IMG/VR virus record: IMGVR_UViG_3300037502_000383
Location: 1-60,999 of that record
From: a virus
Taxonomy: Duplodnaviria; Caudoviricetes
Length of the DNA: 60,999 bases
Reading direction: 5' to 3' (one strand)
Each line of letters starts with the position of its first letter. The stretch's first letter is position 1. Made by a program: the position numbers and the translations under genes. Shown piece by piece: positions 3,530-52,591 of the stretch. Under the pieces are notes generated by a model. That model was not told the origin of the DNA, searched no databases, and saw nothing but the letters and a program-made list of their open reading frames with translations.

Positions 3530-3978
3530 TGGGCACCAACAGACTAGAACGTGAATTGGAAACCCGTGCCATGCAGGAACGTCCCAAGCAGTGGACACCA
3601 CCTGAGCTTTTGCCTGAACCAGATAAGCAGCCCGGTTTTCGATACAGATGGATTCGCACCTCAATACTTGGAAAGACCGATGCCCGTAACATGTCTGCAA
3701 AGATTCGTGAGGGCTGGGAGCCAGTAAAAATCGAGGAGCAGCCAAAATTCCAACTGCTAGTTGATCCCGATAGTCGCTTCAAAGACAACGTCGAGATCGG
3801 CGGATTACTACTCTGCAAGACCCCTGAAGAGTTTGTTGAACAGCGTAATTCTTATTACCAACGACAAGCTGAAGATCAGATTCAGTCTGTAGATAATAGT
3901 CTTATGAAGCAAAGCGACCCTCGTATGCCTCTATTTAAGGAACGTAAATCTACTACGTCCTTTGGTAAGGGCAATTAA
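3529..3978 (+). CDS. Conserved head-module protein
   Basis: Coupled to scaffold stop; YRWIR...EGWEPV...GGLLLC motif. Confidence 0.6.
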   Translation: MGTNRLERELETRAMQERPKQWTPPELLPEPDKQPGFRYRWIRTSILGKTDARNMSAKIREGWEPVKIEEQPKFQLLVDPDSRFKDNVEIGGLLLCKTPEEFVEQRNSYYQRQAEDQIQSVDNSLMKQSDPRMPLFKERKSTTSFGKGN

Positions 3979-3995
3979 ATTTTCTGGAGCTTAAT

Positions 3996-4667
3996 ATGTC
4001 ATATCCGACTGTAGAAGCCCCTTACGGGCTAAAGCCGATCAATCTGATCGGCGGTCAGGTGTTTGCGGGTCAGACTCGTGAACTCCCGATTGCCAGCAAT
4101 ACTGCTGGTGCTATCTATAACGGCGACATCGTTCGCCTATCGTCTGGCTTCATCGTCAAAGAGACTGGTACTACGACTGTCTCGGCAACCGGTGTTGTTG
4201 GCGTGTTTGTTGGCGTATCTTATACCAACCCGTCCACAGGCCAGAAACTGTTCGCTAACTCGTACCCCGGTTCAGTTGTTGCTTCTGATATCGTGGCTTA
4301 TGTCGTTGACGATCCCGATGCGTTGTTTAAGGTCGCTGTGACTGGTGGTGCAACTTCGACCACTATCACCCCGATTTCGGGCACTATCTTAGGCAATAAC
4401 TTGGCGATTTCGCAGCCTTCGACGAACACCACTATTTCGGGTAACTCGAATATTGGCGCGTATGACTCGGGCGGTAACACCGCTTTCACTTTGCCTTTCC
4501 GTGTTGTTGGTTTGGTTGAAGAGACCACCAACTCCGCTGGTAACTACAGCGAAGTGATCGTTAAGTGGAACATGCCGTATATCACTCTGACGGAAGGTGC
4601 TCCTAACGTCGTGGCGTATAACGGCGGTCATTCGTATTACAACCCGACCGGCACTGCCAACGTATAA
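3996..4667 (+). CDS. Capsid decoration/cement protein (probable)
   Basis: PYGLKP, IYNGDIV, GVFVG, VDDPD motifs; beta-rich; directly upstream of MCP; highly expressed codon bias. Confidence 0.6.
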   Translation: MSYPTVEAPYGLKPINLIGGQVFAGQTRELPIASNTAGAIYNGDIVRLSSGFIVKETGTTTVSATGVVGVFVGVSYTNPSTGQKLFANSYPGSVVASDIVAYVVDDPDALFKVAVTGGATSTTITPISGTILGNNLAISQPSTNTTISGNSNIGAYDSGGNTAFTLPFRVVGLVEETTNSAGNYSEVIVKWNMPYITLTEGAPNVVAYNGGHSYYNPTGTANV

Positions 4668-5694: not shown

Positions 5695-6273
5695 ATGGAT
5701 TACTCTGCATTTCCAGTAGATCGCGCAACCGCCAAAGCAACTGGGGCCAAGTATTACTACACAGGCAAGCCATGTTTGAGAGGGCACATTACTCTGCGAA
5801 AAACGAAAGGCTCATGCGTTGATTGCATGAAAGAAGACTGGGCGCTGGACAACAAAAAGCGCAGCGAGAAGCCGAAGTCGGAAGCGTCCAAGGCTGCTGG
5901 TAGGCGGTACTATGAGAAGAACAAAGAGGCTGTGAAGGCTCGCGCAAATGCCAGACCAATAGAAGAGCGCCGTGGGCATAGATACAAATACAAAGAGGCC
6001 AATCCAGAACTGTATAAAGCTTTAACCAGCGTGCGTAAAAGGCGGCATCGAAGCGCCACGCCCAAGTGGATTACGCCGGAGCAAAAGCTTGCAATGCGGC
6101 AACTGTATCTTCAGGCAATGGAGCTGACCAAGCTGACCGGCGAGCGCTATGTCGTGGATCACATCGTGCCGCTGATCTCCGATGAGGTGTGCGGCCTGCA
6201 CGTTCCGTGGAACCTGCGGGTGATCACGCAGGAGGAGAATCTGCGCAAGTCGAATAAGCTGCTTGACGCATAG
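5695..6273 (+). CDS. Free-standing HNH homing endonuclease
   Basis: VDHIVPL...CGLHVPWNLRVI...ENLRKSN HNH motif; N-terminal YYTGKPCxRGH...CVDC zinc motif; GGAGG SD. Confidence 0.9.
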   Translation: MDYSAFPVDRATAKATGAKYYYTGKPCLRGHITLRKTKGSCVDCMKEDWALDNKKRSEKPKSEASKAAGRRYYEKNKEAVKARANARPIEERRGHRYKYKEANPELYKALTSVRKRRHRSATPKWITPEQKLAMRQLYLQAMELTKLTGERYVVDHIVPLISDEVCGLHVPWNLRVITQEENLRKSNKLLDA

Positions 6274-6395: not shown

Positions 6396-6878
6396 ATGGC
6401 TCTTTCTACTACCCAAAGTATTTGGCGTTCGGGTGGCGGCGACACAACTCGCACCGCATATTGTGGTTCGGGCATGATGGCTGCTACTTTCTACATCGCT
6501 GACGTTGCTGCTGCTAGTGCTACAAACGTCAAAGTTTCTTCTACATCTGGCGCTCCTAACTTAATTCTTCCTGCGGGCGCACGGATCATGGCAATCACTT
6601 TCACAGGTGACTCTGCTACAGGCCAAACTGACTTGGGCTTTACGCTCTATAACACCGGCACGAATACTCCGGCAGGTCTGCTAGACAACGCAAACAACGT
6701 CGTAAGTCAAATCACTCCGGGGGCTACAGGTTCTGGCACTGCATTAGGTACAGTTATGTCTGCTACTGAAATGGTGTACATCACGGCGCGCGTAGGCGGC
6801 AGTGCTGGCACTGGCAATATGACCGGTGTGATCCAATACTTCGTTGCTGATCCGCTCGAAGGCCAGCAGAACGTCTGA
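6396..6878 (+). CDS. Virion structural protein (minor capsid/decoration)
   Basis: GAGG SD; beta-rich, LPAGA motif; post-MCP position. Confidence 0.6.
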   Translation: MALSTTQSIWRSGGGDTTRTAYCGSGMMAATFYIADVAAASATNVKVSSTSGAPNLILPAGARIMAITFTGDSATGQTDLGFTLYNTGTNTPAGLLDNANNVVSQITPGATGSGTALGTVMSATEMVYITARVGGSAGTGNMTGVIQYFVADPLEGQQNV

Positions 6879-14894: not shown

Positions 14895-17800
14895 ATGGCA
14901 GATCGCTATTGGGTTGGTGGCACTGGTACATGGAGTAGCACCAACACGGCTAACTGGTCAGCATCTAGCGGTGGGGCTAGTGGTGCGTCTGTTCCTACGT
15001 CAGCAGATAACGTATTCTTTGATGCTGGTAGCGATTCTGGCGGTATCTTCACCGTCACGATGGCAAACACGCCACGGGTTTGCAACGACATCACGATTAG
15101 CGGTCTTGATTTTACAATGACCCTAGCAGGAACAAGCATTGGCTTGACTGTTAGCGGTAGTTTGTCCTTTCCTGCGACAAATTTCACCCGTACCTATACA
15201 GGCACAACGACATTCAATGCCACAACTACAGGCAAGACAATAACTACTAATGGTGTAGCGTTTGGTGGGGCAGTTACGCTTGATGGAGTAGGTGGTGCTT
15301 GGACGTTAGGTTCAGCGTTTAGCTGTGGTTCTAGCACACTAACACTTACCAATGGAACGTTTGATACATCAACAAGTAATTATGCGGTTACTGCTGGAGT
15401 ATTTTCATCAAATAATTCAAACACAAGAACCATAAATTTAAATGGTTCTACTATTACTTTAAGTTCAAGTAATTTTTGGTCTATGACAACCAGCACTAAT
15501 GCAACATTAAATGCTGGAACATCAACAATAAATTCTACAATTACGTCTACGGGACTTTTTTCTGGTGGCGGTCTTACTTACTATAACGTATCTTTTTCTA
15601 CATCAACAGCAACAACAACAACAAAATCAATTACAGGCGCAAACACATTTAACAACTTGACGTTTTCTACGATTGCTTCTGCCGGACTAAACAACATAAG
15701 CATAGCCGCAAACCAGACAATTACTGGAACATTTACTGTTAATGGCGATAATGGTAACCAAAGGCAATTTGTCCGGTCTGACGCAACAGGCATATCTCGT
15801 ACATTAACTTGCGCTGCTATTGCGGCTATGACCGATGTTGATTTCCGTGACATCACAATAGCTGGTGCCGCATCTCCGTTGTCTGGTACGCGATTAGGCG
15901 ATTGCGGCGGTAATAGCAATATTACGTTTGTAGCTGGCGTAAATAAATATTGGAACTTAGCGGCAGGTGGCAACTGGAACGCAACTGCTTGGGCAACAAG
16001 TTCAGGTGGCGGTGTGGCAGATACAAACTATCCATTACCTCAAGACACCGCAATTATTGAAAACACGGGATTAAATACAAGCGCAACAATTACGATCAAT
16101 GGTGCTTGGAACATTGGTACGTTAGACGCATCAACACGCACCAATGCAATGACATTAGCGTCAAGCACAAACACACCAACATTTTATGGAAACTTTACTT
16201 ACGGGTCAGGTGTAACTCCTACTGGTACTGGCACGTATACATTTTCCAATAGAGCTACTAAAACACTTAACTCTGGTGGAATAACATTTACTCAGCCAGT
16301 AACGATAGATGCGCCCGGCGGCGGTATTCAGCTTGTTACAAACAATCTGACATTAGGCTCAACAATTACAACGACACTAACGCGAGGTACGTTAGACCTG
16401 AACAACCTGACGCACTCAACGGGCAGATTTCAGTCAACTAATAGCAATACACGCTCTATAGCATTTGGTACAACAGGTTCTATTGTAACTACTACAACCA
16501 CAGCAACAGCAAAAGTACTGGAGATGGCAATTGCCACAAACTTCACGTTTACCGGTACGTCAAACATATCGGCAGCAATGTCTGCAACAAAAACATTTGA
16601 ATTTGGCAGTACTGCTGGTGCAACGGTTTCAAACAGACTCAACATAAATCTAACGTCCGGAAATTCAGCCCCTACATTTACAGGATCGTTTAGACAAATC
16701 GATTTTACAGGTTCAACCAGTAATACTGGCAGCAACACTATTTCTTGTCACGGGTTTACGCTGGCGTCTGGCGGAACTTATACAAGCACTACTTTTACAA
16801 CAGTAGGCACAGGCACATTAACGTCAACTGGAAAATCAATATCAACTCTTAGGGTTAATGCGTCTGGCATAACAACTACGCTTTCTGATGCTTTGGTTTG
16901 CCTTAGCATATGGTATTTGACCCAAGGCACAATTGATCTTAATGGGTTTACTTTAACTACGCCCGCTTATTGGGGAGATAGCAGCTCTGCAAAAAATATA
17001 ACTTTTAACGGCGGGACTATTGTTATAACAGCAGCTAATGCTTTTGCGTGGGATAACGTTAGCGGTGCTGGAAATCTTACCACGACAGCAGGTACTGGCA
17101 CAGGCACAATCTCGATGACTGCAGCAACTGGCAAGGGGTTTCAAGGTGGAGGGGCTACGTATAACTGCACATTGAATCAAGGTGGTGCCGGAACGCTGAC
17201 AATTACTGGCGCAAATACGTTTAACGACATCACTAGAACTAGCGCCACAGCAAGTCAGATCACGTTTCCTGCTAGTACAACAAACACGTTTAATAACTTT
17301 ACCTTGTCTGGCACATCCGGAAACTTAGTATCGCTTCGCAGTTCTACGCCGGGCACGCGGTTCACGCTATCCAAGTCTTCTGGCACAGTATCCGTTTCCT
17401 ATCTTAATATTCAAGACAGTAACGCAACAGGCGGTGCTACTTGGGAAGCGTTTACATCAAATGGAAACGTCAACTCTGGTAATAATCTTGGCTGGGATTT
17501 TGGCGGGGTTACGTATGCTGTAAGCGTCAGCGAAACAGCTACGGGTACCGATACTATTACGTTGTTTTTGACGCGTGTTGGTGCAATCGATGAAACAGCT
17601 ACCGGTGCGGACACTACAGTCAGTCAATTAGATGCGGCAGGCGCAGTATCTGAAACAGCTACCGGTGCAGACACAACAGCCAGCCAATTAACTACATCAG
17701 GCGCAGTAGCCGAAACAGCTACGGGAACAGATACAGCGGTTGGCAATATAAGCAGTACGTCAACAGTCTCAGAAACAGCCACGGGCGCAGACGATCTTAC

Positions 17801-18296
17801 AGTTACTGCGTCACTACAATTGTTTGTAGCCGAAACAGCCACGGGCACAGACACTACAGCCAGCCAATTAGATGCGGTAAGCGCAATATCTGAATCAGCT
17901 ACAGGTACAGATACCGAAGCCGCTACTTTGACCAGAGTAGGCGCAGTAGACGAAACAGCAACCGGAGCGGACGATACTACAAGCCAGCTTGATGCGTTTG
18001 GTGGTGTTGACGAAACGGCAACAGCGGAGGATACACTAGCCACCCAGTTGGACGGGGTTGCCGCTATTGACGAAACGGTAATAGGCGTAGACTCACCCCT
18101 CGGCAACATCATAACTACTTTGCAAATTAGCGAAGGCGCGACTATCCTAGATGCTGCGCTGGCGCGGCTTTTGTGGGAACTGATCAATGACAATCAGTTA
18201 CCGGGTTGGCAACTAATACCGAATAATCAAGGGTCTGGCTGGACTATAATCAACACGCAGGCTGGCGGATCGTGGACAAATATCGACACTGTGTAA
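14895..18296 (+). CDS. Large tail fibre/adhesin, beta-helix-like with C-terminal 20-aa repeats
   Basis: RYWVGGTGTW..TxNW start, T/G/S/N-rich repeats, ETATGxD repeats. Confidence 0.7.
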   Translation: MADRYWVGGTGTWSSTNTANWSASSGGASGASVPTSADNVFFDAGSDSGGIFTVTMANTPRVCNDITISGLDFTMTLAGTSIGLTVSGSLSFPATNFTRTYTGTTTFNATTTGKTITTNGVAFGGAVTLDGVGGAWTLGSAFSCGSSTLTLTNGTFDTSTSNYAVTAGVFSSNNSNTRTINLNGSTITLSSSNFWSMTTSTNATLNAGTSTINSTITSTGLFSGGGLTYYNVSFSTSTATTTTKSITGANTFNNLTFSTIASAGLNNISIAANQTITGTFTVNGDNGNQRQFVRSDATGISRTLTCAAIAAMTDVDFRDITIAGAASPLSGTRLGDCGGNSNITFVAGVNKYWNLAAGGNWNATAWATSSGGGVADTNYPLPQDTAIIENTGLNTSATITINGAWNIGTLDASTRTNAMTLASSTNTPTFYGNFTYGSGVTPTGTGTYTFSNRATKTLNSGGITFTQPVTIDAPGGGIQLVTNNLTLGSTITTTLTRGTLDLNNLTHSTGRFQSTNSNTRSIAFGTTGSIVTTTTTATAKVLEMAIATNFTFTGTSNISAAMSATKTFEFGSTAGATVSNRLNINLTSGNSAPTFTGSFRQIDFTGSTSNTGSNTISCHGFTLASGGTYTSTTFTTVGTGTLTSTGKSISTLRVNASGITTTLSDALVCLSIWYLTQGTIDLNGFTLTTPAYWGDSSSAKNITFNGGTIVITAANAFAWDNVSGAGNLTTTAGTGTGTISMTAATGKGFQGGGATYNCTLNQGGAGTLTITGANTFNDITRTSATASQITFPASTTNTFNNFTLSGTSGNLVSLRSSTPGTRFTLSKSSGTVSVSYLNIQDSNATGGATWEAFTSNGNVNSGNNLGWDFGGVTYAVSVSETATGTDTITLFLTRVGAIDETATGADTTVSQLDAAGAVSETATGADTTASQLTTSGAVAETATGTDTAVGNISSTSTVSETATGADDLTVTASLQLFVAETATGTDTTASQLDAVSAISESATGTDTEAATLTRVGAVDETATGADDTTSQLDAFGGVDETATAEDTLATQLDGVAAIDETVIGVDSPLGNIITTLQISEGATILDAALARLLWELINDNQLPGWQLIPNNQGSGWTIINTQAGGSWTNIDTV
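17521..18150 (+). repeat. About 10 degenerate tandem 60-bp (20-aa) repeats
   Basis: GAAACAGC-like words recur every 60 nt (17532, 17592 ... 18072). Confidence 0.85.
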
Positions 18297-21284: not shown

Positions 21285-22409
21285 ATGTGCGATCCTGTCT
21301 CGCAGTTTGCGGTACAGAAGTATGTCCACTTGACCGAGTTCTTGGACAAGGATAACTGCGCCCAGCTAACGGCTGAGTTGAAGAAGCTCGTCGCTCAAAA
21401 GCAAACGACGCAAGATATTCAGTGCCCGAAGTCCGAAGCGATTCACGGTGCACAGGTATTTGACTCGCTGCTAGTGCAGCTTCTGCCGCATTTCGAGACA
21501 GCATCAGGCAAGCGCCTTTTGCCGACCTACTCCTACGCTCGGCTATACGCACCGGGCGATGAGCTAAAGAACCATACCGACCGCGAGTCCTGCGAGATCA
21601 GTGCGACTGTGACGCTCGGTTTTGAAGGCGATGTCTGGCCCATCTATATGGGCGACAGTATGGAGAAGGATAACGCCAGCGAGATTCGCATGGGCGTGGG
21701 TGACGCAGTGCTGTACCGTGGCATGGATAAGCATCATTGGCGTGAGGTCTATACCGAGGGTAAGTGGCAAGCGCAGGTATTCCTGCATTACGTCGATGCT
21801 GACGGTAAATATGCCGAATGGAAATTCGATAAAAGAAAAAGCCTAAACCTGCCGCAGCAAGAGCCTGAGAACATGCGGCACTGGATATATACCGACATCC
21901 TAACGCCCGAGGCTTGCGACATTATCGTCAAAACCTATACGCAAGAAATGATTGAAACCCTGCCGCCGGTAATCGGCACAGGCGAAGGCGCGATCAATAC
22001 CGAGATTAGAAACGTCGAGCGCGTAATGCTGCCGGTCTACAAGGACATCGGTGGGCGCTTGGCTGCTGCTGGCTTTGCTGCAAACAACCGTGCGTGGAAG
22101 TTCAATATCACCCACGCTAACCAAGGCGAGTTCTTGAAGTACCCGGCAGGTGGTCGGTATACGGCGCACATGGATACGTTCTTGAACCCAACGGACGAGT
22201 GCAGGAAGCTAACGGTATTAGCGTTCTTGAACGACGACTTCGAAGGCGGCAAGTTCTTTATTCAGGACGGACATGAGCGGTACTACCCGCCACAAGCAAA
22301 AGGTACGGTGCTTGTATTTCCATCGTTCTTGGTACACGGCGTAGAAGATATTACTGCGGGTACGCGCTATTCAGTCGTGTGCTGGCTAGTCGGCCCATTC
22401 TTTAAATGA
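21285..22409 (+). CDS. Tandem two-domain 2OG-Fe(II) oxygenase (prolyl-4-hydroxylase-like)
   Basis: Domain 1 HTD...HWR; domain 2 HMD...RKLT...FEGG...FPS..HGV...GTRYS. Confidence 0.85.
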   Translation: MCDPVSQFAVQKYVHLTEFLDKDNCAQLTAELKKLVAQKQTTQDIQCPKSEAIHGAQVFDSLLVQLLPHFETASGKRLLPTYSYARLYAPGDELKNHTDRESCEISATVTLGFEGDVWPIYMGDSMEKDNASEIRMGVGDAVLYRGMDKHHWREVYTEGKWQAQVFLHYVDADGKYAEWKFDKRKSLNLPQQEPENMRHWIYTDILTPEACDIIVKTYTQEMIETLPPVIGTGEGAINTEIRNVERVMLPVYKDIGGRLAAAGFAANNRAWKFNITHANQGEFLKYPAGGRYTAHMDTFLNPTDECRKLTVLAFLNDDFEGGKFFIQDGHERYYPPQAKGTVLVFPSFLVHGVEDITAGTRYSVVCWLVGPFFK

Positions 22410-35048: not shown

Positions 35049-38000
35049 ATGGCAAACCCATTTGACCAGTTTGACGTTGCAACCAAAGCTGGCAATCCGT
35101 TTGACCAGTTCGATGCGCCAGTCAAGCGCGAGCGCACATTAGGTGAAGCTGCGACGGATATCTACGCTGGCCTCAAAGGTGGCGTAGGTTCGCTATTACA
35201 GCTACCCAGTCAGGTGGCTGGCGTAGTTACTGGTGAGTTTGAGAAACCGGGTGAAGAGACCGGTCTTGCTGCCGCTGGCAAAGGGCTACAGGCTGAAGCG
35301 CAGGCAATGAAATCTCCCGGCCTGAAAGCACGAGAAGCAGCGCGCGCGGAGAAAGTTGCAGCAGCAGAGAAGCGTGGGCAGCTAGATGCCTTCATGACCG
35401 CATTCTCGGAGACGCTTCGTGATCCCGGACTACTGACTAATTTCCTTGCCGAGCAGGCTCCACAACTTATCCCATCGCTAGGTGTTGCACGGTTGATCAA
35501 ACCGTTTGCCGGTACGGCTGCTGCCGTGCGCGGTGCCGTTGGTACTGGCGCAGTCCAGCAAGGCGCAGACATTGCCGCCGGTACATACGAGCAGGTTTAC
35601 AACGAGCTGATCAAACAAGGTGCTACTGAAGAGGAGGCCGCTGGCCGCGCTATCGGGCTGGCAAGAACGGCTGGTGCTGGTGCGCTGACTATCTCTCTGT
35701 TGGCACAACGTCTGCCCGGAGCGAAGGCAATAGAAGAGGCATTCGCTGGTCAGGAAGGCAGGCTCGGCAGAGTGTTTGGTGCTGGCCGTGCAGGGCTGGG
35801 TGAAGCGATTGGTGAGGTTGCGGAAGAGACTCCAGCCAAGGCGCTACAGAACTACCTGATGGCCTACGGTGTTGAGCCGCTGGGCATGGAAGCAGTTACA
35901 CCCGGATCATCGCTGACTGCTGGTCTGGGTGAGACGGCTGCTATGGCCGCGCTGGGCGGTGCGGGTATGGGTGCTGGTGTGGGCTTGGCACAGCGTCAAG
36001 TTGGCGCAGAACAAGTGCCGCCAAAAAGACAGCCGCCTTCTCAGTTTGCTCCTGAACCAGAAGCGCCTATTGAACCAATGCCGCCTGTGGAGCCACGAGC
36101 GCCCGCAGGAGCGGCTGCTGTACCGCCAACACCACCTGCGCCTATCGAAGCTGCCGCGCCGCCTGTAGAGCCGGGTGTGCCGCCTGTCGAACCACCTGCT
36201 CCGCCTGCACCGCCCATGCCGGAACCGCCTAGAGACGCGGTAGATGCGATGCGCAATTACTGGGTGGGTAGCCCAGCAGACTTTGGCATGTCATTCGCAG
36301 ACATCCAGAACCGTGACCGCACGAAGCCCGCATCGATCCAGCAGATGACGAGCATTGCCAGACGGCCTGATTACAACCGGCTGTCTGTGTCGAGAGACTT
36401 CGGTGCTGGTGCGCCTGTAGTTATCAGCGATATCGAGATTGATCCTAGCCGCCTTGGCCGGATTGATACCGTGTCTGCGTCCGACGGTACCAAGATTCCA
36501 GTGCAGTACGCTGTCATGGATGCGCGTGAGATTACGCCCAGCAACCGTGCGGATGGTACGACGATAGAGCAGTATGCCGATCCCGCGTTTGAGGGCATCC
36601 GCCCGGTAGCGGGGAATGGCCGTATTGCTGGCTTGCAGGAGCTGTACCGTAGTGGTCCATACGGCGACTATGTGCAGCAGATGATGGGCGATGCAGCCCA
36701 CGGTATTAATCCTGAAGTCATCTCTGCTATCGAGCAGCCCGTGCTTGTGCGCATCATGCCCAAGTCTGCGCTCACGCCTGATATTGCTGACAAGAGCAAC
36801 GTCGGTGGTCAGCTTGGCATGTCGCCGACCGAGCAGGCAAAGATCGACATGAACAGGTTCGACCTGCAAGGTATCCAGTTCCTTGCTAATGGTTCTCCTA
36901 GCTTGAACTCGCTGCGGCAATTTGTTGCCGCTATGCCGCCGGAAGAACAGGGCAATCTGCTGAACGCAGAAGGCCAGCCTAATCCACTGGCAAAGATCCG
37001 TCTGGCAAATGCACTGTTTGCTCGTGCGTATGCAAATGATTCGTTGATCGATCTGTATGCAGAAGCTACTGACCCAGAGGCGCAGCAGATCCTGCGTGGT
37101 ATGGCTATCGCTGCACCGGCCATGTCCAATCTGTCAGAAGCTGGCGACTATGACATCCGTCCGTACGTGACTAAGGCTGCGGAGCTGGCAGTCAATGCTC
37201 GTCGTCAGGGTATCGACCTCGCGGCATACATTGATCAAGGTGATCTGGAGTTAGATCTGTTGACCCGTGAAGTGGTCAGCATGTTTGCCGCCAACAAGAA
37301 CGCACCACGCAGGATTGGTGACTCGTTGGTAATGCTGGCAGCAGAAGCAAACCGTGCGGCAGAGCAGGCATCAGCACCGCCAGATATGTTTGGTGAAGTT
37401 GCGTTCAAGCGCCCGCTGGAAGATGTATTTGCCATTCTGCGCGGAGAGCCGACACAAGTAGCGCCGATAGTCGAAGAGGAGGAAGCGCCAGAAAAACTGA
37501 CCTACCAGATCGGAAAGTCAGAAGAGCAGATTGCCCAAGAAATAGATGGCATGAACGTAGTGCAGGTAGCGGACTGGCTGGTAGACAACGCGCCTAACAA
37601 TTTTAGCAAGATCGTATCCGAAGCTGTGCGCTCGCGGGTCAAGGCGATGCAAGCCCGCAAGATTCCGATGACGTTCAAACTGTTGCGAGGTGCCGAAAGG
37701 AAGGAAAAAGTTTACGGCGCTGTCGATGGTAGATACAAAGGCAATGTTCGATTTGATGTGACAATAAATGCGCCAACAGCGCCCGGAGAAAAGGCAGCAG
37801 TTGTTGGCACAGAATACAGAACATTGCTACATGAGATGTTGCATCTGGCGACGCAAGGTCAGATTCACATTGAAATAGGAAAGGGTCGTCGCCCTACTAG
37901 CGGCCCTATCTATGAATTAGAGAATTTGCGCAAGTTCATTATGAAGAAGGTACGAGAAGATCGTGCCGCTGGTCGTCCCGTACCAAGAAGATTAAATAGA

Positions 38001-41000
38001 GAGCAAGCGCTATTAGATGTCCATGAGCTGATTTCGTATGGTTTTACAGAGGTTGAGGTTCAGCAGTATCTGGCGTCCATAACCTACAAAAATAAGAATG
38101 GGTTTACCCGTTTTGTAGACGCAATTCGCAAGCTGATGGCTATTAACAAAAAAGATCAGACTGCGATGGAACGTCTTGTGTCACTGACAGATGAAATTCT
38201 GGAAGTGCCAGTCAAAGATATTGCGGCAAAACTTAAGGCTGCTGGCGTACGTTTTGGGGTTGGCGCGATTGGTACGCCATCAATGGCGGACACTCGTACG
38301 CCGGAGTTCCGCAAGTGGTTTGGCAAGAGCAAAGTAGTTGACCAGAATGGCGAACCGCGAGTGATGTATCACGGCACGGTGTCCGACTTTGATACCTTCA
38401 TTCCTGACTCGCACTTTGGAACTGCTCGTGCAGCCAACCAGCGCGCGCGATCATGGAGTGCGCAGAACGGCGAAAGACCGATGCAGATCATGCCCGTGTA
38501 TCTGCGCATCGAGAATCCGCTACGTGTCATGGATAACGAGGCTTCCGATGAGGCAGCTTTGCTCAACGCTATCAAGCGCGGCAAGTATCCACAACTTGAC
38601 TTGGGAATCGCCAATCGAGAGGGTGCATACGCTGCGGCAAAAGCTGCGGGCTACGATGGTCTTGTCTATCAAAATAAGGTAGAGGATAGAAACAAACTAT
38701 CGTATGTGGCGTTTGATCCCAACCAAATCAAATCCATCTTCAACCTGCGGCCCACCGAGAGCAAGGTAATCACCGAAGAGCGCGAAGCGCCGGAAGAACG
38801 CCCAAGCTTTTATCCCGGCATGTCTCAACTTGGCTATACCCGGATAGATGACCGTACATCGCCACGCATATATACCGATGAGGGTGGTCAGCCGTACCTG
38901 ACATTTGAAAAAAATGGTGTCAGGGTTGCGCTATCGTCCAACAATATTTTGTACGAGGATGAGCGCGGACGGGTAAATGAAGGATATGGCGAGCCAAACG
39001 AATCTATTATTCGTGCGCTAATTGTTGATCCAGAGGTGCGCGGCCAAGGCAGGGCAAAGGCTGTATTGCGGGAGATTACTGATCTAGCAGATCAATCTGG
39101 CACCGTGTTGTATATACAACCAGCGCCTATCGCGGGCGGCAAAATGTCAGTGCAACAATTGACAGCCCTATACAAACAGTTTGGATTTGTACCAGCAAAA
39201 GGCAAATCGCAAAAAGTTCTTGTGCGCGAACCCAAAGCGGAGACGGTAACCACAGAAGAGCGCGAGCCATTCGCTGACATCTCGGAAGAGAAGCTAGAGA
39301 CTCCATCCCGCATACAGGACAAGCTGGAAGAGAAGTGGGACCGGATGCGTACGGGCGCACCCAAGGCCAAGCCGTCCAGCTTCTCCGATGTTGATGAAGG
39401 TCTGTGGAAAGATATCAGTGGCGTCTTCTTCCCGCAGAACAAGAACATCGTGCAGAAGGTAGATGGTATGCGCGACCGCTTTTGGCAGCGGCTGGCGCAG
39501 GGCGTGGCAGATCAGTACCGCACCATCAAAGACTACAGCCCAGAGGCGTACATGAAAGCCCGCATGTCGAAGACTATCGACGGCGCGCTGGAAGGCATCC
39601 TGTTCGAGGGCGAGGTCAAGCTGACTGACGGCGCGCTCGACATTGCCAAGGACACGAAGGGTCTGCTGAAGGTGATGGAGCCGGTGGGTAATGAAGTAGA
39701 CCGGTATCAAATCTGGGTAGCGTTGCAACGTGATGCGCAGCTTGTGGCACAGGGTAAAGTGCCATCGGTAAGCAAAGATATTGTGGCTCGCCGCGATGAA
39801 CTATCTGCCGGGAAAATTGGAGATAAGTCGCGCCTTGAGGTGTATCAACAGGTTCAGAAGGACATGAACAAACTGAACCGCTCGGTGCTTCGTATTGCGC
39901 TCAAGCAGGGAATTATAGATAAGGAAGCGTTCAAGGTCTTTGCTCGTGACATCAATTACATCCCGTTCTACAAGGTAATGGATGAGGGTGGAAGCGTACA
40001 GGCTGCGGCCAGTAAGACTGGTCTAGTCAATCAGTACTTCTCAAAGGCGCTGCAAGGTGGAGAGAAACCGTTCGGCGATCTGATGGAAAACACGCTGCGG
40101 AACTGGAGCCACATTCTGTCTGCATCCATGAAGAACGAGGCGGCTAACGCTACTGTCAAGGCGGCGATGGATGTTGGAGGAGCGTTCCCAAATCTGAAAG
40201 TTGGCCTTGAGTGGCGACTGGATGACGACGGCAGAAACGGCAAGGTCTATAGTGCTAAGACAGGTGAGATGATAGGCGATGGTTCACTGAAGCCGCAGTA
40301 CACCAGCAGCGATGGCAAGGGTCTGGTCAAGACCATGATCGACGGCAAGCCTGCGTACTTCGAGATCGTTGATCCGTTACTGCTTGAATCCATCATGTCC
40401 ATCGGGTACATGGGTCCGAAGTCCAAGTTCCTCGATGTCGCTCGTGACTTCAAGAACATCCTGCAATTCGGTGTCACTGTCTCGCCTGCGTTCAAAGTGC
40501 GCAACCTGATCCGCGACTCCGTGCAGTCTGCTGCCGTGTCTGGCATCGGCCTGAACATCGCCAAGAACGTGACGGATGGTATTGCCGCAAGTAAGAAGGG
40601 CAACCCTGACTACATCTCTGCGCTGGCGGGCGGTGCCATCTTTAACTTCGGCTCGTACATGGAGGGTGATCAGGCCAAGATGGTCAAGCGCCTGATCGAG
40701 CAGGGCATCAAGGGCGAGAACATCCTCGACACAGATGCGAAGATCAAGGCTGGCTTGAAGAGAATGTGGGACGGCTACCAAGATTGGGGCAACCGTTCAG
40801 AAGCTGCCAACCGCATGGCGCTGTATCAACAGCTCCGGGCGAAGGGATTCAGCCATCTCGAAGCATCGTTCCAAGCGCGCGATCTGCTGGACTTCTCGAT
40901 GCAAGGCGCATGGCCTGCGGTCAGAATGGTCACGCAGGTGATCCCGTTCTTGAATGCCCGTGTGCAGGGTCTGTACAAGCTTGGCAGAGACGGCATCACA

Positions 41001-42056
41001 CCGACCAGCCGGGTGATCTACAACAGCATCACCGGCAAGCCTATCGACCTGACAGACAAGCAGAAAGCGCAGCAGTTCTCCATCGTGACCGGCGCTGTGA
41101 TGCTGGCTTCCTTGATGCTGTACATGTCGTTCAAGGATGACGACGAGTGGAAGAAGCGCGAGCAGTGGGACCGCGATAACTTCTGGTGGTTCAAGATGCC
41201 GGGTATGGATACTGCCATCCGCATACCGAAGCCATTTGAGATCGGCGCGTTTGGTACATTTGCCGAGCGTATTGCCGAGCAGATGTTTGATCAGGGTGCA
41301 GAAGGCCGAGTGCTTGAGCAGTCGATGAAGCGGATGCTGACCGATACCTTTGCGATCAACCCGATCCCGCAGGTGATCAAGCCGCTCGTAGACTTGTACG
41401 CTAACAAGGACAGCTTCACCGGCGCGCCGATTGAGACTGCGGGCATGGAGCGTCTGTCGAAAGCAGAGCGTATCGCTGTGGGTACCAGCCCGCTAGCAAA
41501 GGCGCTCTCGCAGGTGGCAAACGTATTCCTGCCAGAGTCTACGGAATTGTCGCCCGTGCAAGCTGACTATGCCATCAAGGCGTATCTCGGCTGGATGGGT
41601 GCAACGATCTCGTCCACATCGCACTATGCGGTGATGCCGTTCTCGAAGTCTGCCTACCCTGACCACAACTGGGCAGAGACGATGTCGCTGGGGTTTGTGA
41701 AGACGTTGCCTGCCACGCAGTCTGGCTACGTCACCAGCTTCTACGAGAACTCGAAGATCATCTCGCAAGCCTATGCTGACATGCGGCACTACGCGCAGAT
41801 AGGTGAATCAGAGAAGATGAGGGAGACCTTCGAGGAGAAGGGCGACAAGATCATGCTTGCCAAGCTGTACGATCAGACAAGCAAGGACATGGCAAAGCTA
41901 CGGCAGGTCATCCAGCAGATACAGATAGACGAGAGAATGAGCGGCGCTCAGAAGAAGGAAGAGATCGACCGGATCAAGATGTTGATCGGTGATCTTGCCA
42001 AGCTGGCGGAAGAGACGCGCGTGTCGGTTAAGAAGCAGTATGAAGCCGCTCGATAG
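35049..42056 (+). CDS. Giant polyvalent ejection protein (ddrB-ParB-like, zincin HExxH, ART-PolyVal-like, GNAT, LPD38-like)
   Basis: AGNGR (ParB-like), HEMLH, FRKWFGxSKVVD..GEP..YHGT...PVYL..NP...GYDG..F.PNQIKS, VDPEVRGQG, RIPKPFEIG...N..SFTGAPIE. Confidence 0.8.
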   Translation: MANPFDQFDVATKAGNPFDQFDAPVKRERTLGEAATDIYAGLKGGVGSLLQLPSQVAGVVTGEFEKPGEETGLAAAGKGLQAEAQAMKSPGLKAREAARAEKVAAAEKRGQLDAFMTAFSETLRDPGLLTNFLAEQAPQLIPSLGVARLIKPFAGTAAAVRGAVGTGAVQQGADIAAGTYEQVYNELIKQGATEEEAAGRAIGLARTAGAGALTISLLAQRLPGAKAIEEAFAGQEGRLGRVFGAGRAGLGEAIGEVAEETPAKALQNYLMAYGVEPLGMEAVTPGSSLTAGLGETAAMAALGGAGMGAGVGLAQRQVGAEQVPPKRQPPSQFAPEPEAPIEPMPPVEPRAPAGAAAVPPTPPAPIEAAAPPVEPGVPPVEPPAPPAPPMPEPPRDAVDAMRNYWVGSPADFGMSFADIQNRDRTKPASIQQMTSIARRPDYNRLSVSRDFGAGAPVVISDIEIDPSRLGRIDTVSASDGTKIPVQYAVMDAREITPSNRADGTTIEQYADPAFEGIRPVAGNGRIAGLQELYRSGPYGDYVQQMMGDAAHGINPEVISAIEQPVLVRIMPKSALTPDIADKSNVGGQLGMSPTEQAKIDMNRFDLQGIQFLANGSPSLNSLRQFVAAMPPEEQGNLLNAEGQPNPLAKIRLANALFARAYANDSLIDLYAEATDPEAQQILRGMAIAAPAMSNLSEAGDYDIRPYVTKAAELAVNARRQGIDLAAYIDQGDLELDLLTREVVSMFAANKNAPRRIGDSLVMLAAEANRAAEQASAPPDMFGEVAFKRPLEDVFAILRGEPTQVAPIVEEEEAPEKLTYQIGKSEEQIAQEIDGMNVVQVADWLVDNAPNNFSKIVSEAVRSRVKAMQARKIPMTFKLLRGAERKEKVYGAVDGRYKGNVRFDVTINAPTAPGEKAAVVGTEYRTLLHEMLHLATQGQIHIEIGKGRRPTSGPIYELENLRKFIMKKVREDRAAGRPVPRRLNREQALLDVHELISYGFTEVEVQQYLASITYKNKNGFTRFVDAIRKLMAINKKDQTAMERLVSLTDEILEVPVKDIAAKLKAAGVRFGVGAIGTPSMADTRTPEFRKWFGKSKVVDQNGEPRVMYHGTVSDFDTFIPDSHFGTARAANQRARSWSAQNGERPMQIMPVYLRIENPLRVMDNEASDEAALLNAIKRGKYPQLDLGIANREGAYAAAKAAGYDGLVYQNKVEDRNKLSYVAFDPNQIKSIFNLRPTESKVITEEREAPEERPSFYPGMSQLGYTRIDDRTSPRIYTDEGGQPYLTFEKNGVRVALSSNNILYEDERGRVNEGYGEPNESIIRALIVDPEVRGQGRAKAVLREITDLADQSGTVLYIQPAPIAGGKMSVQQLTALYKQFGFVPAKGKSQKVLVREPKAETVTTEEREPFADISEEKLETPSRIQDKLEEKWDRMRTGAPKAKPSSFSDVDEGLWKDISGVFFPQNKNIVQKVDGMRDRFWQRLAQGVADQYRTIKDYSPEAYMKARMSKTIDGALEGILFEGEVKLTDGALDIAKDTKGLLKVMEPVGNEVDRYQIWVALQRDAQLVAQGKVPSVSKDIVARRDELSAGKIGDKSRLEVYQQVQKDMNKLNRSVLRIALKQGIIDKEAFKVFARDINYIPFYKVMDEGGSVQAAASKTGLVNQYFSKALQGGEKPFGDLMENTLRNWSHILSASMKNEAANATVKAAMDVGGAFPNLKVGLEWRLDDDGRNGKVYSAKTGEMIGDGSLKPQYTSSDGKGLVKTMIDGKPAYFEIVDPLLLESIMSIGYMGPKSKFLDVARDFKNILQFGVTVSPAFKVRNLIRDSVQSAAVSGIGLNIAKNVTDGIAASKKGNPDYISALAGGAIFNFGSYMEGDQAKMVKRLIEQGIKGENILDTDAKIKAGLKRMWDGYQDWGNRSEAANRMALYQQLRAKGFSHLEASFQARDLLDFSMQGAWPAVRMVTQVIPFLNARVQGLYKLGRDGITPTSRVIYNSITGKPIDLTDKQKAQQFSIVTGAVMLASLMLYMSFKDDDEWKKREQWDRDNFWWFKMPGMDTAIRIPKPFEIGAFGTFAERIAEQMFDQGAEGRVLEQSMKRMLTDTFAINPIPQVIKPLVDLYANKDSFTGAPIETAGMERLSKAERIAVGTSPLAKALSQVANVFLPESTELSPVQADYAIKAYLGWMGATISSTSHYAVMPFSKSAYPDHNWAETMSLGFVKTLPATQSGYVTSFYENSKIISQAYADMRHYAQIGESEKMRETFEEKGDKIMLAKLYDQTSKDMAKLRQVIQQIQIDERMSGAQKKEEIDRIKMLIGDLAKLAEETRVSVKKQYEAAR

Positions 42057-49161: not shown

Positions 49162-49377
49162 GTTCCGGTATAATTACAGGTGACGAAAGCGGATGCTGGC
49201 GGTCTGTGACTACACGGGCTGGCGCAACCAGTGCAGCGAGTAGTCATCAAGACGCATGAGGATTGCCCTCGGTAAAACGGGGGATGAGCCAGTCCTCAGT
49301 CGTGTTGGTTAAGTTTATAGTAGGTTTGTTTTAAGTTTACAGTGGGCTTGTTTTAAGTTTACAGTCCCAGCAACCAC

Positions 49378-49818: not shown

Positions 49819-50148
49819 GTTACCTGTCCCGGCAGGTAGCCGGGCGCGCCTCCCGCGATAGCAGTGAGCCTGCATGGGCTGCTGGAGAGAGAACACTGGC
49901 CGAGGTCTCACCCGCCTGCGAGCCACGCCACCTGTCAGCGAGGGATGGCACAAGAGGGAAGGGCCAGTGGTGAGACATACCTTCCATCGAGATAATCGCT
50001 GCCTTCTGGGATTGCTAGGCTGCTAACACGTTTCAGTAGCTGGGCAGGGAGGATAACCCCGCCAGTGCTCCGCAAGGAGGGGGGCTATCACCCATGGGGG
50101 AACTAAACGCGGAACATACAATACATGGATGTTGACAGGAACAATGTG

Positions 50149-50177
50149 TTGACATACACTAGATCTAGATGTACATT
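50149..50177 (+). promoter_or_regulatory. Rightward sigma70 promoter upstream of the pentamer-array locus
   Basis: TTGACA-17 bp-TACATT; GGAGG SD downstream. Confidence 0.7.
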
Positions 50178-50201: not shown

Positions 50202-50408
50202 ATGACACAAGCAGAGTTGCTGGAGTTAGCGAAGCAAGCGGGCGGCGATGACTGGGGGATCTTCCGGGACTTCATGCCGGAGGTAGAGAAGCTGGCAGCG
50301 CTGATTGTGGAACGTGAGCGCGAACGTGCGGCCATGATTTGCCACCAGTGCCGGGACTGGGAATACGCCAGCGAGGAGATCGCGTACAGAATTTTGAATC
50401 AAGGGTGA
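50202..50408 (+). CDS. Hypothetical (AERE-family-like)
   Basis: GGGAGG SD; ERERERAAMIC. Confidence 0.65.
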   Translation: MTQAELLELAKQAGGDDWGIFRDFMPEVEKLAALIVERERERAAMICHQCRDWEYASEEIAYRILNQG

Positions 50409-50797
50409 GGCGAGCTTGGGTGCGGAATGGCCGGGCGAGGTGGCATCAGGTTTGGACTGGTAGGGCAGAGCTAGGAATGGCTGGGTCTGGTTCGGTGAGG
50501 AAGGGCGGGGCAGTGGGTAGTTCATTCGATGAGTGAACTATCCAATGCTGGGTCAGGTTAGGCAGAGTTGGGCAGGGATTGGAGAGGCGAGGCAAGTCGA
50601 TGTAAGGTAGGGCGAGGTCAGGTTAGGCTTGGCGGGGTCTGGTTTGGTGCAGCAAGGCGAGGTATGTAGTGGTTGGGTAAGGGCTGCTGTGCAGCGTATA
50701 GACGGTTCTCTGAGCCGTTTATGCGATGCGCGAGCATCATCGGGTACGGCGTGGCAAGTCACGGCGGGGCAAGCCCCGGTTCGGTTAGGTAAGGGTT
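50404..50797 (+). ncRNA. Putative guide-RNA array: three phased GG(Y)NN pentamer tracts separated by two conserved hairpins
   Basis: Tracts 50404-50513 (19/22 pentamers start GG), 50551-50680 (21/26), 50743-50792 (8/10); hairpins 50510-50548 and 50691-50729. Confidence 0.7.
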
Positions 50798-50816: not shown

Positions 50817-51431
50817 ATGTCAAAAGCAAAACAAGTCGCAGAGGTAACTAACGGTGGTGCAGAAACAATTGAATCTGGCATCCCGTACATCGCTCACATC
50901 ACCATCGAGGGCAGTGCTGACTTCCTATTCCATCGATGGAATTGTGAAGCGGTAGAGACCAAAGCTAAAGCAGCCAAGAATTCTGCGGCTAAGAAGACGG
51001 ACGATATTGAGTCTTACGTTTGGCGCAATGACGACGGTGAGCTGTGCTGCCCCGGCGAATACCTGAGACAGTCAGTCATCATGGCGGCGAAGTTTAAGCA
51101 AGATCCACGCAGCCCAAGGAAGAGCGCGATGGATTTGACGAAGGCAGGCGTAGTCAGCCTGACCAATCTGGCTTCGTTTGGTAAAGAGAAATGGGATTAC
51201 GAAGACAAGCGCCGTGTCGTGATCCAGCGGGCTGGTGTCAATCGAGTGCGGCCTGCAATGAAAGCGGGATACCGGTTGGACTTTGATCTGATGATCTTGA
51301 CGCCGGAATATCTGGATCGGTTTTGGATTCAGGACACGCTGTCTACGGCTGGCCGATTGGTTGGGATTGGCGATTTCCGCCCGACGTTTGGCCGGTTCAA
51401 TGTAGTGAAGTTTGAAGTATCAGAAGGATAA
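50817..51431 (+). CDS. Solo RAMP/Cas7-like RNA-binding protein (204 aa)
   Basis: GGAG SD; HITIEGSADFLFH first strand, LCCPGEYLRQSV (cf. RAMP IPGSSLKG), C-terminal Gly-rich loop AGRLVGIGDFRPTFGRFNV; flanked by pentamer arrays. Confidence 0.65.
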   Translation: MSKAKQVAEVTNGGAETIESGIPYIAHITIEGSADFLFHRWNCEAVETKAKAAKNSAAKKTDDIESYVWRNDDGELCCPGEYLRQSVIMAAKFKQDPRSPRKSAMDLTKAGVVSLTNLASFGKEKWDYEDKRRVVIQRAGVNRVRPAMKAGYRLDFDLMILTPEYLDRFWIQDTLSTAGRLVGIGDFRPTFGRFNVVKFEVSEG

Positions 51432-51437
51432 AAACTA

Positions 51438-51492
51438 GGCGTGGCTTGGTGCGGCGAGATCCGGTACGCCAAGGTCAGGCAAGGCAAGGGTT
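51438..51492 (+). ncRNA. Fourth GG(Y)NN pentamer tract directly downstream of the RAMP-like gene
   Basis: GGCGT GGCTT GGTGC GGCGA GATCC GGTAC GCCAA GGTCA GGCAA GGCAA GGGTT. Confidence 0.65.
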
Positions 51493-51508: not shown

Positions 51509-52591
51509 GTGATTCAATTTAACCGCAGTTCAAGCCTTCGTGTTGATTCAGAGATCAACATGATGATCGCAGGGATGACCGCTGGTATCAGTACGCGGCC
51601 ACACCTAGTCACTGACACTCTGCTGGAGCTAGGTGCCAAGTATCCAGAGAATCTGAGATTGGCAGCGATTGCAGCGCGCATGGCGTGGTGGGCAGCGATT
51701 GATTGGGAAGACATAGACTTCATGCTGCCCATCATCCTGCCGCAGAACTTTACCTACAAGCAGGAGATCGTCGCTTGTGCTGGGTTCGAGCGCGCCAACC
51801 GCAAGTGGGGCATCGAAGAGGATCAGTGGTATTTGTACTGCGGCTTTGCTCCGAAGCTGATTACACCCGGCGGTCGAGTGATTCACGGCCACGTTGTGCA
51901 TCGCCCGAAGACCGGCACTGTGTTTGAAATACTTGAAGAGCTGGTGAACACGGCAATCTACGCTGAGATGCAAGGCTATTCGCTGAAGGTGGAAATGACG
52001 GGCGACTGGTGGAAATACGAGGAACCCTTCGAGGAGATCTTTGCGGATGTGTTCGAGTTCTGCCACGGCAAGCTGCCACGCAGTTTGATGGATGGTGCGC
52101 GAACAGAGATGCTCAAGGCATCGGATGCCACGATAGCAGAGTTTGCCTGCCTGAAAGAAGGTTGGTACAACGATATCACCGTGGCTATCAATGATGCGGT
52201 GTCGTATCCATTCCCGCTTGAGCCGGACATTGGCATCATGTATCTGCGCGGTGGCAACGCTTTGCATACGAAGACAGTGCTGCCGCCTGCTGGTCTGATC
52301 TGGCAAGAGCTATCATGGATGAGCAAGTTTGTCCGCCGCCGGGTGGTCATGTCAGATGATCCATCGCTCGGCCAGATGATTCATACCGGCGATGCTTGGG
52401 TGCAGGATCGTACCGATCAGGGCAGCAGCACTTCCTGCTTGCCTGAGATGCAGCACTTTCTTGATATGTACGAGGCCAAGCTGAACTGGTCTTGCCCATC
52501 GGCACCGATAGTCAATTCAGTGCAATGGAGTCGCGTTGACCGTGAGAATTACAGCCAAGTTAATCCTGTCTGGAGGTACATGATCTTATGA
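51509..52591 (+). CDS. Hypothetical, possibly degenerate fucosyltransferase-like (GT-B) protein
   Basis: AAGGGG SD before GTG; IGIMYLRGG and VVMSDD resemble NodZ/GT11/GT23 motifs. Confidence 0.45.
   Translation: MIQFNRSSSLRVDSEINMMIAGMTAGISTRPHLVTDTLLELGAKYPENLRLAAIAARMAWWAAIDWEDIDFMLPIILPQNFTYKQEIVACAGFERANRKWGIEEDQWYLYCGFAPKLITPGGRVIHGHVVHRPKTGTVFEILEELVNTAIYAEMQGYSLKVEMTGDWWKYEEPFEEIFADVFEFCHGKLPRSLMDGARTEMLKASDATIAEFACLKEGWYNDITVAINDAVSYPFPLEPDIGIMYLRGGNALHTKTVLPPAGLIWQELSWMSKFVRRRVVMSDDPSLGQMIHTGDAWVQDRTDQGSSTSCLPEMQHFLDMYEAKLNWSCPSAPIVNSVQWSRVDRENYSQVNPVWRYMIL

Follow-up and report, generated by a model that had tools for sequence, protein, structure and literature searches.

The 60,999-nucleotide (nt) stretch analyzed here, referred to below as the window, is the complete record of an uncultured freshwater phage (IMG/VR record IMGVR_UViG_3300037502_000383) and encodes portal, head, tail-fiber, and endolysin proteins, an Erf-like annealing protein, and a virion protein of 2335 amino acids (aa). 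On its + strand, a 5-nt unit, GG-Y-N-N, is repeated in phase in four arrays that flank a gene for a 204-aa protein (positions 50817 to 51431), and this locus is proposed here to be a VIPR (Viral Interference Programmable Repeat) system, in which the arrays would be vrRNA genes and the 204-aa gene would be vipr. The elements, all on the + strand, are ordered as promoter-like sites, a 68-aa open reading frame (ORF), tract 1 (T1), a hairpin, tract 2 (T2), a 62-nt tail, tract 3 (T3), vipr, tract 4 (T4), and a 360-aa gene. T1 (50404 to 50513) comprises 22 GGYNN units, with units 3, 9, and 14 degenerate, and T2 (50551 to 50680) comprises 26, with units 4, 10, 11, 21, and 24 degenerate. T3 (50743 to 50797) and T4 (51438 to 51492) have 10 units each (50743 to 50792 and 51438 to 51487, respectively), followed by a terminal GGGTT, and T4 begins directly 3' of the stop codon of the 204-aa gene, between it and the ribosome binding site of the next gene. 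Both of these shorter tracts terminate in GGYAA-GGGTT-YTTTAA, approximately 20 nt 5' of the next start codon.

The 5-nt periodicity of the tracts exceeds chance by far. Between positions 50404 and 50792, GG recurs at a 5-base step 39 times, against a mean of 13.5 in 1000 shuffles (standard deviation, 3.7; maximum, 27). Start positions at which at least seven of eight in-phase units carry GG number 19 in the whole window, all within T1 and T2 and all on the + strand, and only 1 of 100 whole-window shuffles yielded any such position. GG is present in 19/22, 21/26, 8/10, and 8/10 units of T1 to T4, respectively, and GGY is present in 15/22, 19/26, 8/10, and 8/10. Read at 5-nt steps, the NN positions reproduce letter for letter the three strings (22, 26, and 10 units for T1, T2, and T3) extracted in an earlier interpretation of this DNA made from its letters alone (the sequence-only reading), which had described the NN content as non-repetitive, unlike that of a slippage microsatellite. 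The present counts agree, with 12, 12, 7, and 8 distinct NN dinucleotides in T1 to T4 and only 0 to 2 adjacent identical units per tract, and Tandem Repeats Finder left the GGYNN arrays unreported. That reading had also put T1 and T2 at about twice the length of T3 and T4, and the measured ratio is 2.2 to 2.6, with T4 lying outside the interval that it had described. No Rfam family was detected anywhere in the window at gathering thresholds, and a search of the window for tRNA and tmRNA genes found none.

The product of the 204-aa gene is predicted, from sequence profiles and a structural model, to be Vipr, a minimal RAMP (Cas7/Csm3-like) protein. It belongs to no Pfam family, and its sole PHROG match is phrog_4652, of unknown function. 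An AlphaFold2 model based on a 44-sequence alignment has a pLDDT (predicted local distance difference test) of 84.3 and a pTM (predicted template modeling score) of 0.77, with the putative thumb region being less confident (blocks with a pLDDT of 56 to 72). In a Foldseek search of the PDB, the top matches were type VII Cas7 and Csm3, with E values from 9e-7, and 126 matches had an E value of ≤1e-3. VIA-align, which is independent of Foldseek, gave a Z score of 11.5 to Csm3 (6ae2_B) over residues 19 to 204, followed by Cmr4, Cas7-11, and type IV Csf2. The C-terminal G-loop, GIGDFRPTFGRF, is invariant at G183, D186, R188, P189, G192, R193, and F194 among the 44 sequences.

The Vipr of Escherichia phage SUSP1 (KT454805.2, 28474 to 29061, minus strand), whose residue numbering was verified on that record, served as the reference. 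Aligned with hhalign, the 44-sequence family (A1) matches SUSP1 Vipr with a probability of 97.3 and an E value of 2.3e-11 over 156 columns, the G-loop included, and tblastn of SUSP1 Vipr against the window gave 35.7% identity over the C-terminal 70 aa (E value of 3.9e-6), with E values down to 1.9e-9 in the relatives described below. A tblastn search of 50,697 phage records with the 204-aa protein returned only phage DSL-LC04 and missed SUSP1, so that the homology needed a profile to be seen. SUSP1 residues H17, E71, R138, D177, W178, and R179 align to H39, E81, R145, D186, F187, and R188 of the window protein, and each of the latter shows full invariance or at least 90% conservation across the family. 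According to the cryo-electron microscopy preprint (bioRxiv 10.64898/2026.04.26.720927), one protomer binds each repeat, with H17 and D177 holding G1, R138 and W178 holding G2, and E71, M72, and R179 holding Y3. Two of these GGY contacts are substituted here, W178 by another aromatic residue (F187) and M72 by Y82, which is likewise invariant or at least 90% conserved, and the target-backbone contact K33 aligns to A52, in a low-confidence stretch.

Scanning IMG/VR with the 204-aa protein yielded 79 related loci, which with the GenBank phage DSL-LC04 make a clade of 80 (L001 to L080). Same-strand GGYNN arrays adjoin the vipr homolog in 76 of these 80 loci. Over 211 distinct arrays from the window and its relatives (3796 units), the unit logo reads G (0.97), G (0.93), Y (0.90), and two near-uniform positions. 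In arrays of at least eight units, the gene strand accounts for 4183 units and the opposite strand for 35, approximately 100 of the 4183 coming from a poly-G artifact at the contig end of L014 (positions 5929 to 6046), which mimics GG arrays in all phases and gives false guide matches; this end was removed before the skip-rule counts given below. L077 is the only locus with sizeable arrays opposite the vipr-homolog strand (15 and 12 units, at 2524 to 2598 and 945 to 1004). Some arrays are extremely long, L050 having 143 uninterrupted GGYNN units (3593 to 4307) and L042, L045, and L065 several hundred units in total each, and very long arrays 3' of the vipr homolog also occur in L048 and L057, well above the 9 to 16 units known from the clades studied so far. 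These may be the "staggered" or ribozyme-interspersed arrays mentioned in bioRxiv 10.64898/2026.04.26.720920. DSL-LC04 (L001, OR003939.1) encodes a Vipr homolog with 70% identity at 2884 to 3501, with three GGYNN arrays just 5' of it, and the annotation of this homolog as a "helix-turn-helix transcriptional regulator" looks wrong.

The arrays also vary among closely related strains. Contigs from other freshwater, drinking-water, and aquatic sequencing runs share the T2 tail and differ in the GGYNN arrays on either side of it, with loose ends at 50683 and at 50737 to 50749. Of the nine substitutions that one variant contig (run X2) shows within T2, seven affect NN positions, and the same contig carries an insertion of 15 nt (three units) at the 5' end of T2. 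Such strain-level array variation resembles repeat-and-spacer turnover. Most runs in which parts of the stretch occur are metagenomes from freshwater, drinking water, or aquaculture. The T2 tail itself, "GGGCTGCTRTGCAGCGTAYAG...CTRTGCGATGCGTAAGCATC" (50681 to 50742, 62 nt), occurs clade-wide as the structured 3' tail of the predicted T2 vrRNA, and 17 copies of this type fold with RNAalifold into a single hairpin of 17 predicted pairs, 8 of which show compensatory changes. T1 is followed by a short hairpin-forming stretch (TAGTTCA...TGAACTA, 50514 to 50550) that is probably the 3' tail of the T1 RNA. The T1 hairpin differs in sequence from the T2 tail, and its layout resembles that of the "CAGCGGATAGG...TCCTTCC" tails found after some arrays in the relatives.

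To examine the pairing code, exact gapped matches of 220 arrays (3794 units), taken from the window and its relatives, were sought in 518,839 nt comprising the array-masked related loci and the window, with NN-shuffled guides as controls. With 0, 1, 2, or 3 target bases skipped per unit, exact 8-unit seeds gave 4, 81, 1, and 4 matches, against shuffle means of 0.6, 0.2, 0.6, and 0.5, and exact 7-unit seeds gave 12, 203, 7, and 15 matches, against approximately 10 each. The 8-unit skip-1 matches come from approximately six separate guide families, versus one or two at the other spacings, and the matches are not independent, homologous guides and homologous targets both being represented. Matched blocks are 7 to 14 units long, start at array unit 1 or just past a degenerate unit, and usually leave the last units unmatched. 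Eight guide blocks of the relatives match other loci with at most one mismatch and match their own locus at background level only, and T1 to T4, at skips of 0 to 3, matched their own 60,999 nt no better than 100 NN-shuffles did. Several of the clade targets lie within the helicase gene adjoining the vipr of relatives. The 1-nt-skip rule holds in this clade. The central proposal of the sequence-only reading was that NN pairs with a target in which one base is skipped (NNx), and it is borne out at the level of the clade, in that enrichment over NN-shuffled guides appears at skip 1 among the four spacings, as in the published "1 nt skip rule." Its corollary that guides would tolerate wobble-position changes is in line both with the published rule and with the T3 target family described next, in which the wobble base is the one skipped.

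Targets of the window's own guides were sought in IMG/VR with 8-unit, 1-skip seeds, which specify 16 bases. T3 units 1 to 8 matched at least 40 loci, and the ninth unit was matched as well in 32 of those listed, which brings the match to 9 of the 10 T3 units. These 32 loci represent one homologous site with the codons T-V-K-T-G-K-P-S-Y, the skipped base being the wobble base. The site lies near the C terminus of a 159-aa protein (phrog_2480, of unknown function), the gene for which is absent from the window. Two long contigs carrying it are classed as proviruses, in which the target gene sits in an early operon ahead of genes for a Sak4-like annealing protein and a helicase. A 9-unit T3 scan of genome contigs (185,579 species) found 15 sites, 9 of them in the same phrog_2480 gene, namely, in Limnohabitans sp. 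2KL-1 (278-kb contig), an uncultured Limnohabitans, a Polynucleobacter metagenome-assembled genome (MAG), Burkholderiales and Betaproteobacteria MAGs, and three MAG contigs otherwise labeled. Every skipped position is variable among 41 copies of the target. Homologous T3 guides occur in L002, L004, and L005; the L002 guide is longer by a single unit (CG) at its 5' end, and this unit matches the codon just before the target site as well. Between the L004 guide and that of the window, 5 of the 10 third positions differ, compared with just 1 of the 20 NN positions. Among 401 genomes of the family to which the Limnohabitans genome belongs, the 10-unit T3 pattern with up to two mismatches gave four forward matches versus one control match, with only the known site being in the real gene. 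As judged from these alignments, the T3 guide fits a wobble-skipping target in a prophage early gene of freshwater Burkholderiales. For 61 genomes of the genus of the Limnohabitans genome, a Vipr profile was not found in those searched, which gives no host link by that route. In a more distant relative, a 7-unit array at L021:727 agrees at all 14 positions with the beginning of the Sak4-like gene (L185 [G001], approximately 6719 to 6740, minus strand), 380 bp from the T3 target and on the other strand of the same two proviruses. This match is suggestive of convergence with the T3 target and lies within chance expectation for 7-unit seeds.

The remaining tracts gave weaker results. T1 units 1 to 8 matched 32 loci, of which 10 share the peptide EEWAIRDGQYG in a large protein of 72- to 87-kb contigs and agree with T1 over 9.5 of its first 10 units, ending at degenerate unit 9-10; by the same chance arithmetic that applies to T3 (see below), this site is a candidate target only. 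T1 units 15 to 22 matched seven loci, and in one 4-kb contig the match extends to 23 of 26 positions over units 10 to 22, making it a single-contig candidate. T2 units 1 to 8 matched 24 loci, 13 of which form a cluster in a near-identical capsid-like gene; the skipped base there falls at codon position 2, and this cluster was rejected as probably due to chance. T2 units 12 to 19 matched two IMG/VR loci with no extension, and T2 units 19 to 26 matched at least 40, with the adjacent unit matched in none of those listed. For T4, units 1 to 8 had eight matches in six IMG/VR loci, the next unit being fully matched in one, and the 10-unit pattern with up to two mismatches was not found in five Burkholderiales-type genomes. 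Against the 519 kb of related loci and the window, 9- to 12-unit stretches of the window's guides at ≥83% identity did not rise above shuffles at any spacing. The gapped targets that the sequence-only reading predicted for the window's own guides are therefore seen for T3, with its wobble-skipping target family, in the form of weak candidates for T1, and not credibly for T2 or T4.

We consider it very probable (approximately 0.93) that the GG-Y-N-N arrays are the vrRNA genes of a phage-encoded VIPR system and that the 204-aa gene is its Vipr. As described in bioRxiv 10.64898/2026.04.26.720920, a VIPR system consists of the minimal RAMP Vipr and vrRNAs of 9 to 16 GGY/NN units with a conserved 3' tail, and pairing with double-stranded DNA occurs through the NN dinucleotides, each unit skipping one target base, mostly the codon wobble base. 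Features expected of such a system include an RRM core, a glycine-rich loop, and a thumb in Vipr and tracts of four or more tandem GGY/NN (YNNGG) units with variable NN in the intergenic DNA flanking vipr, on its strand. The same preprint names satellites, prophages, and other VIPR systems as natural targets and distinguishes seven VIPR types, SUSP1 being type II; according to bioRxiv 10.64898/2026.10.15.759431, SUSP1 competes with its satellite. The gapped-target pairing suggested in the sequence-only reading is the published VIPR mechanism, since the "1 nt skip rule" was shown experimentally in the former preprint. In the window, the operon transcript would give rise to RNAs on which one Vipr protomer would assemble per 5-nt unit, burying GGY and presenting the two N bases. 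The NN string would then pair with double-stranded DNA with every third target base skipped, which would let the guide track codon positions 1 and 2 and ignore wobble changes, and binding would repress the transcription of a competing mobile element. For this locus, we infer expression, processing, ribonucleoprotein formation, and repression, like the number of guides in T1 and T2, from computational analysis only.

Several observations weigh against the assignment to VIPR. T1 and T2, with 22 and 26 units, exceed the 9 to 16 units given in the preprints for the SUSP1 and P. fulva clades. T3 and T4 lack a hairpin tail and run into ribosome binding sites, whereas vrRNAs are described with a structured 3' tail. 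A homolog of SUSP1 vap1 is absent from the window, and the 80 loci share no clade-wide accessory gene, the 360-aa neighbor being present in only 2 of them. The sole hint of RNA is one 242-nt contig from a metatranscriptome library that covers positions 50544 to 50769 and may be DNA carry-over. T2 and T4 have no credible target in the IMG/VR seed scans, and the tracts do not converge on common targets, as five whole target contigs (262 kb) each hold only the match by which they were selected. The T3 match is weak by itself, because a 16-nt seed scan returns approximately 10 unrelated matches, so that one further matching unit has a chance probability near 0.5. The T3 target is raised above chance by the extra matching unit in L002, the recurrence of the guide in L004 and L005, the conservation of NN over third positions, and the fit of the freshwater habitat.

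The arrays might instead serve solely as a protein-binding or translation-control platform on an mRNA leader, in the manner of TRAP or CsrA, with NN carrying no target information. In that case, GG at each 5-nt step would be read by an oligomeric protein that controls the ribosome binding sites downstream. The layout offers some support for this, in that T3 and T4 end without a hairpin tail approximately 20 nt 5' of the start codon of vipr and that of the following gene, respectively, the arrays fill whole intergenic spaces of one operon 3' of a promoter-like site, and autoregulation by a Vipr filament bound to its own leader is plausible. However, a platform of this kind leaves unexplained that NN strings of the clade match genes of other phages at the 1-nt skip (81 matches versus 0.2 for shuffled guides) and that homologous guides keep their NN positions while the Y position drifts, and in the homologous SUSP1 system NN has been shown experimentally to act as the guide. 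We therefore regard a purely regulatory platform as very improbable, although the arrays may have a regulatory side role alongside their guide role. Two-tier quadruplexes could in principle arise from a GG dinucleotide every 5 nt, and this conceivable structure is what speaks for the view that the arrays are a slippage microsatellite or a G-quadruplex spacer with no sequence-specific role. That view has next to no probability, given the non-repetitive NN content in which Tandem Repeats Finder detects no repeat, the strict strand bias, the equally strict association with a RAMP gene (76 of 80 loci), and the enrichment of skip-1 targets. The link to the RAMP gene and the skip-1 enrichment were also the grounds on which TRAP- or CsrA-like platforms, Rho utilization sites on the opposite strand, and G-quadruplex arrays were dropped as candidates.

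With the arrays read as vrRNA genes, the number of guides in the two long tracts can be considered. The sequence-only reading held that T1 and T2 may each contain two guides, and evidence from the relatives and from T1 itself points partly in this direction. Arrays of 20 to 25 units in L031, L032, L034, and L038 contain a matched block of only 9 to 10 units past a degenerate unit, with the other half unmatched, the T1 candidate match ends at degenerate unit 9-10, and the separate single-contig candidate covers T1 units 10 to 22 at 23 of 26 positions. We somewhat favor the presence of at least two guides in each long tract. The opposing view, in which one long guide of 22 units fills T1 and another of 26 units fills T2, each pairing over its full length with a target not yet sampled, draws on the presence of one tail per tract, on matched blocks that reach 13 to 14 units in a relative (L047), and on the published vrRNA caller, which according to the preprint allows up to 40 units (bioRxiv 10.64898/2026.10.15.759431); neither a target for a full tract nor one for a second half turned up to decide the number, and we hold a single guide to be the minority possibility. 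More tentative still, and rather unlikely, is the idea that the locus represents a perhaps uncharacterized vrRNA architecture, in which multi-guide tracts (22 to 26 units here and up to 143 in relatives) are split into independent guide blocks by degenerate non-GG units instead of tails, and the tail-less T3 and T4 abut ribosome binding sites so that the Vipr filament forming a guide could also throttle the translation of its own operon.

The operon begins with two overlapping sigma-70-like promoter matches (50132 to 50177, + strand; TTGACA-17-TACACT and TTGACA-17-TACATT), which match the consensus at 10 of 12 positions each and are consensus matches only. The 68-aa ORF (50202 to 50408, + strand), whose stop codon overlaps the first T1 unit, and the 360-aa gene downstream of T4 (51509 to 52591, + strand) have no Pfam or PHROG family and are conserved only in L002 and L003. 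The 360-aa gene occupies the position expected of an accessory vap gene and may be one, as a candidate by position alone; an Atlas search with its product had a best score of 0.89 and returned hypothetical proteins only. Genes for ParB-like, helicase, and Toprim primase proteins follow 3' of it. A helicase gene lies downstream of the vipr homolog in 31 of the 80 loci and may simply be a phage replication gene. Pfam and PHROG scans found no Cas family among the flanking genes or in 32 further phage proteins, and the only periodic element at the locus is the 5-nt GGYNN unit, rather than a CRISPR repeat-spacer array accompanied by several cas genes.

Elsewhere in the window, a 22-nt direct repeat, TTAAGTTTACAGTAGGCTTGTT, occurs in 2.6 copies with 91% matches at 49309 to 49365, within a gene-poor region that separates the leftward early genes from the rightward operon, and could be an operator or iteron. 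The 2335-aa ORF (35049 to 42053) strongly matches giant PHROG families that have no known function and partially matches the "virion RNA polymerase" family phrog_2206 (E value of 1.7e-17). A 374-aa protein (21285 to 22406), encoded among tail-fiber-assembly-like genes, matches PHROGs labeled ferrochelatase and 2OG-Fe(II) oxygenase (E value of 1.7e-44) and may be the product of an auxiliary metabolic gene. A 60-nt tandem repeat (17591 to 17722; 2.2 copies, score of 187) lies within a 1133-aa ORF (14895 to 18293).

The mechanism proposed for this locus is already in print, in preprints of April to October 2026, and the locus is not a discovery in itself. It adds to the known VIPR systems an uncultured 61-kb freshwater phage together with a clade of approximately 80 environmental relatives. 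It also confirms the one-base-skip code independently, and by computation alone, in a Vipr lineage whose relation to the studied E. coli phage system shows only at the profile level. A natural conflict is indicated as well, since the T3 guide fits a conserved gene in the early operon of prophages of Limnohabitans, Polynucleobacter, and related Burkholderiales, and this target family also hints at the host of the phage. The locus is unusual in its long tracts, its tail-less tracts at ribosome binding sites, and its lack of a recognizable vap gene.

Compared with the VIPR system of SUSP1, the locus has the same basic composition. In each, one small RAMP protein bears a G-loop (GVGDWRPRFGRF in SUSP1 and GIGDFRPTFGRF here), the two proteins being homologous at the profile level, and GGY/NN units lie on the gene strand on both sides of vipr, the array caller used here also finding the four arrays of SUSP1. 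The arrays of both end in GGG, and a structured tail comes next in SUSP1 and, in the window, after T2 and probably T1. In both, the code is wobble tolerant with a 1-nt skip, directed at other mobile elements and not at the phage itself. The two differ in that the proteins share approximately 36% identity, with BLAST covering the C-terminal 70 aa only, and in that no vap1 homolog was found in the window. The tail is a pseudoknot in SUSP1, according to the preprint, and has another sequence and forms a long hairpin here, and T3 and T4 abut ribosome binding sites without any tail. The best target of the uncultured freshwater phage is a Burkholderiales prophage early gene, whereas that of SUSP1 is an E. 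coli satellite.

The backbone of class 1 CRISPR-Cas effectors (Cas7, Csm3, and Cmr4) shares with the predicted Vipr the RAMP fold, G-loop, and putative thumb (Z scores of 9 to 11.5 and Foldseek E values of approximately 1e-6), and with the proposed complex one protomer per repeat and periodic base flipping. The period is 5 nt here and 6 nt in the CRISPR-Cas backbone, and in the VIPR scheme three guide bases are displaced and one target base is skipped per unit; the locus has no CRISPR repeat-spacer array, no flanking Cas family, and, in its annotated part, no adaptation genes. The sites of TRAP (trp RNA-binding attenuation protein) consist of (G/U)AG triplets separated by spacers of 2 to 3 nt. 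They resemble the present arrays in being a short RNA motif repeated approximately every 5 nt with variable spacers and read by an oligomeric protein near a ribosome binding site. The motif here is GGY rather than NAG, the protein encoded next to the arrays is a predicted RAMP rather than a TRAP-fold protein, and the variable bases carry target information.

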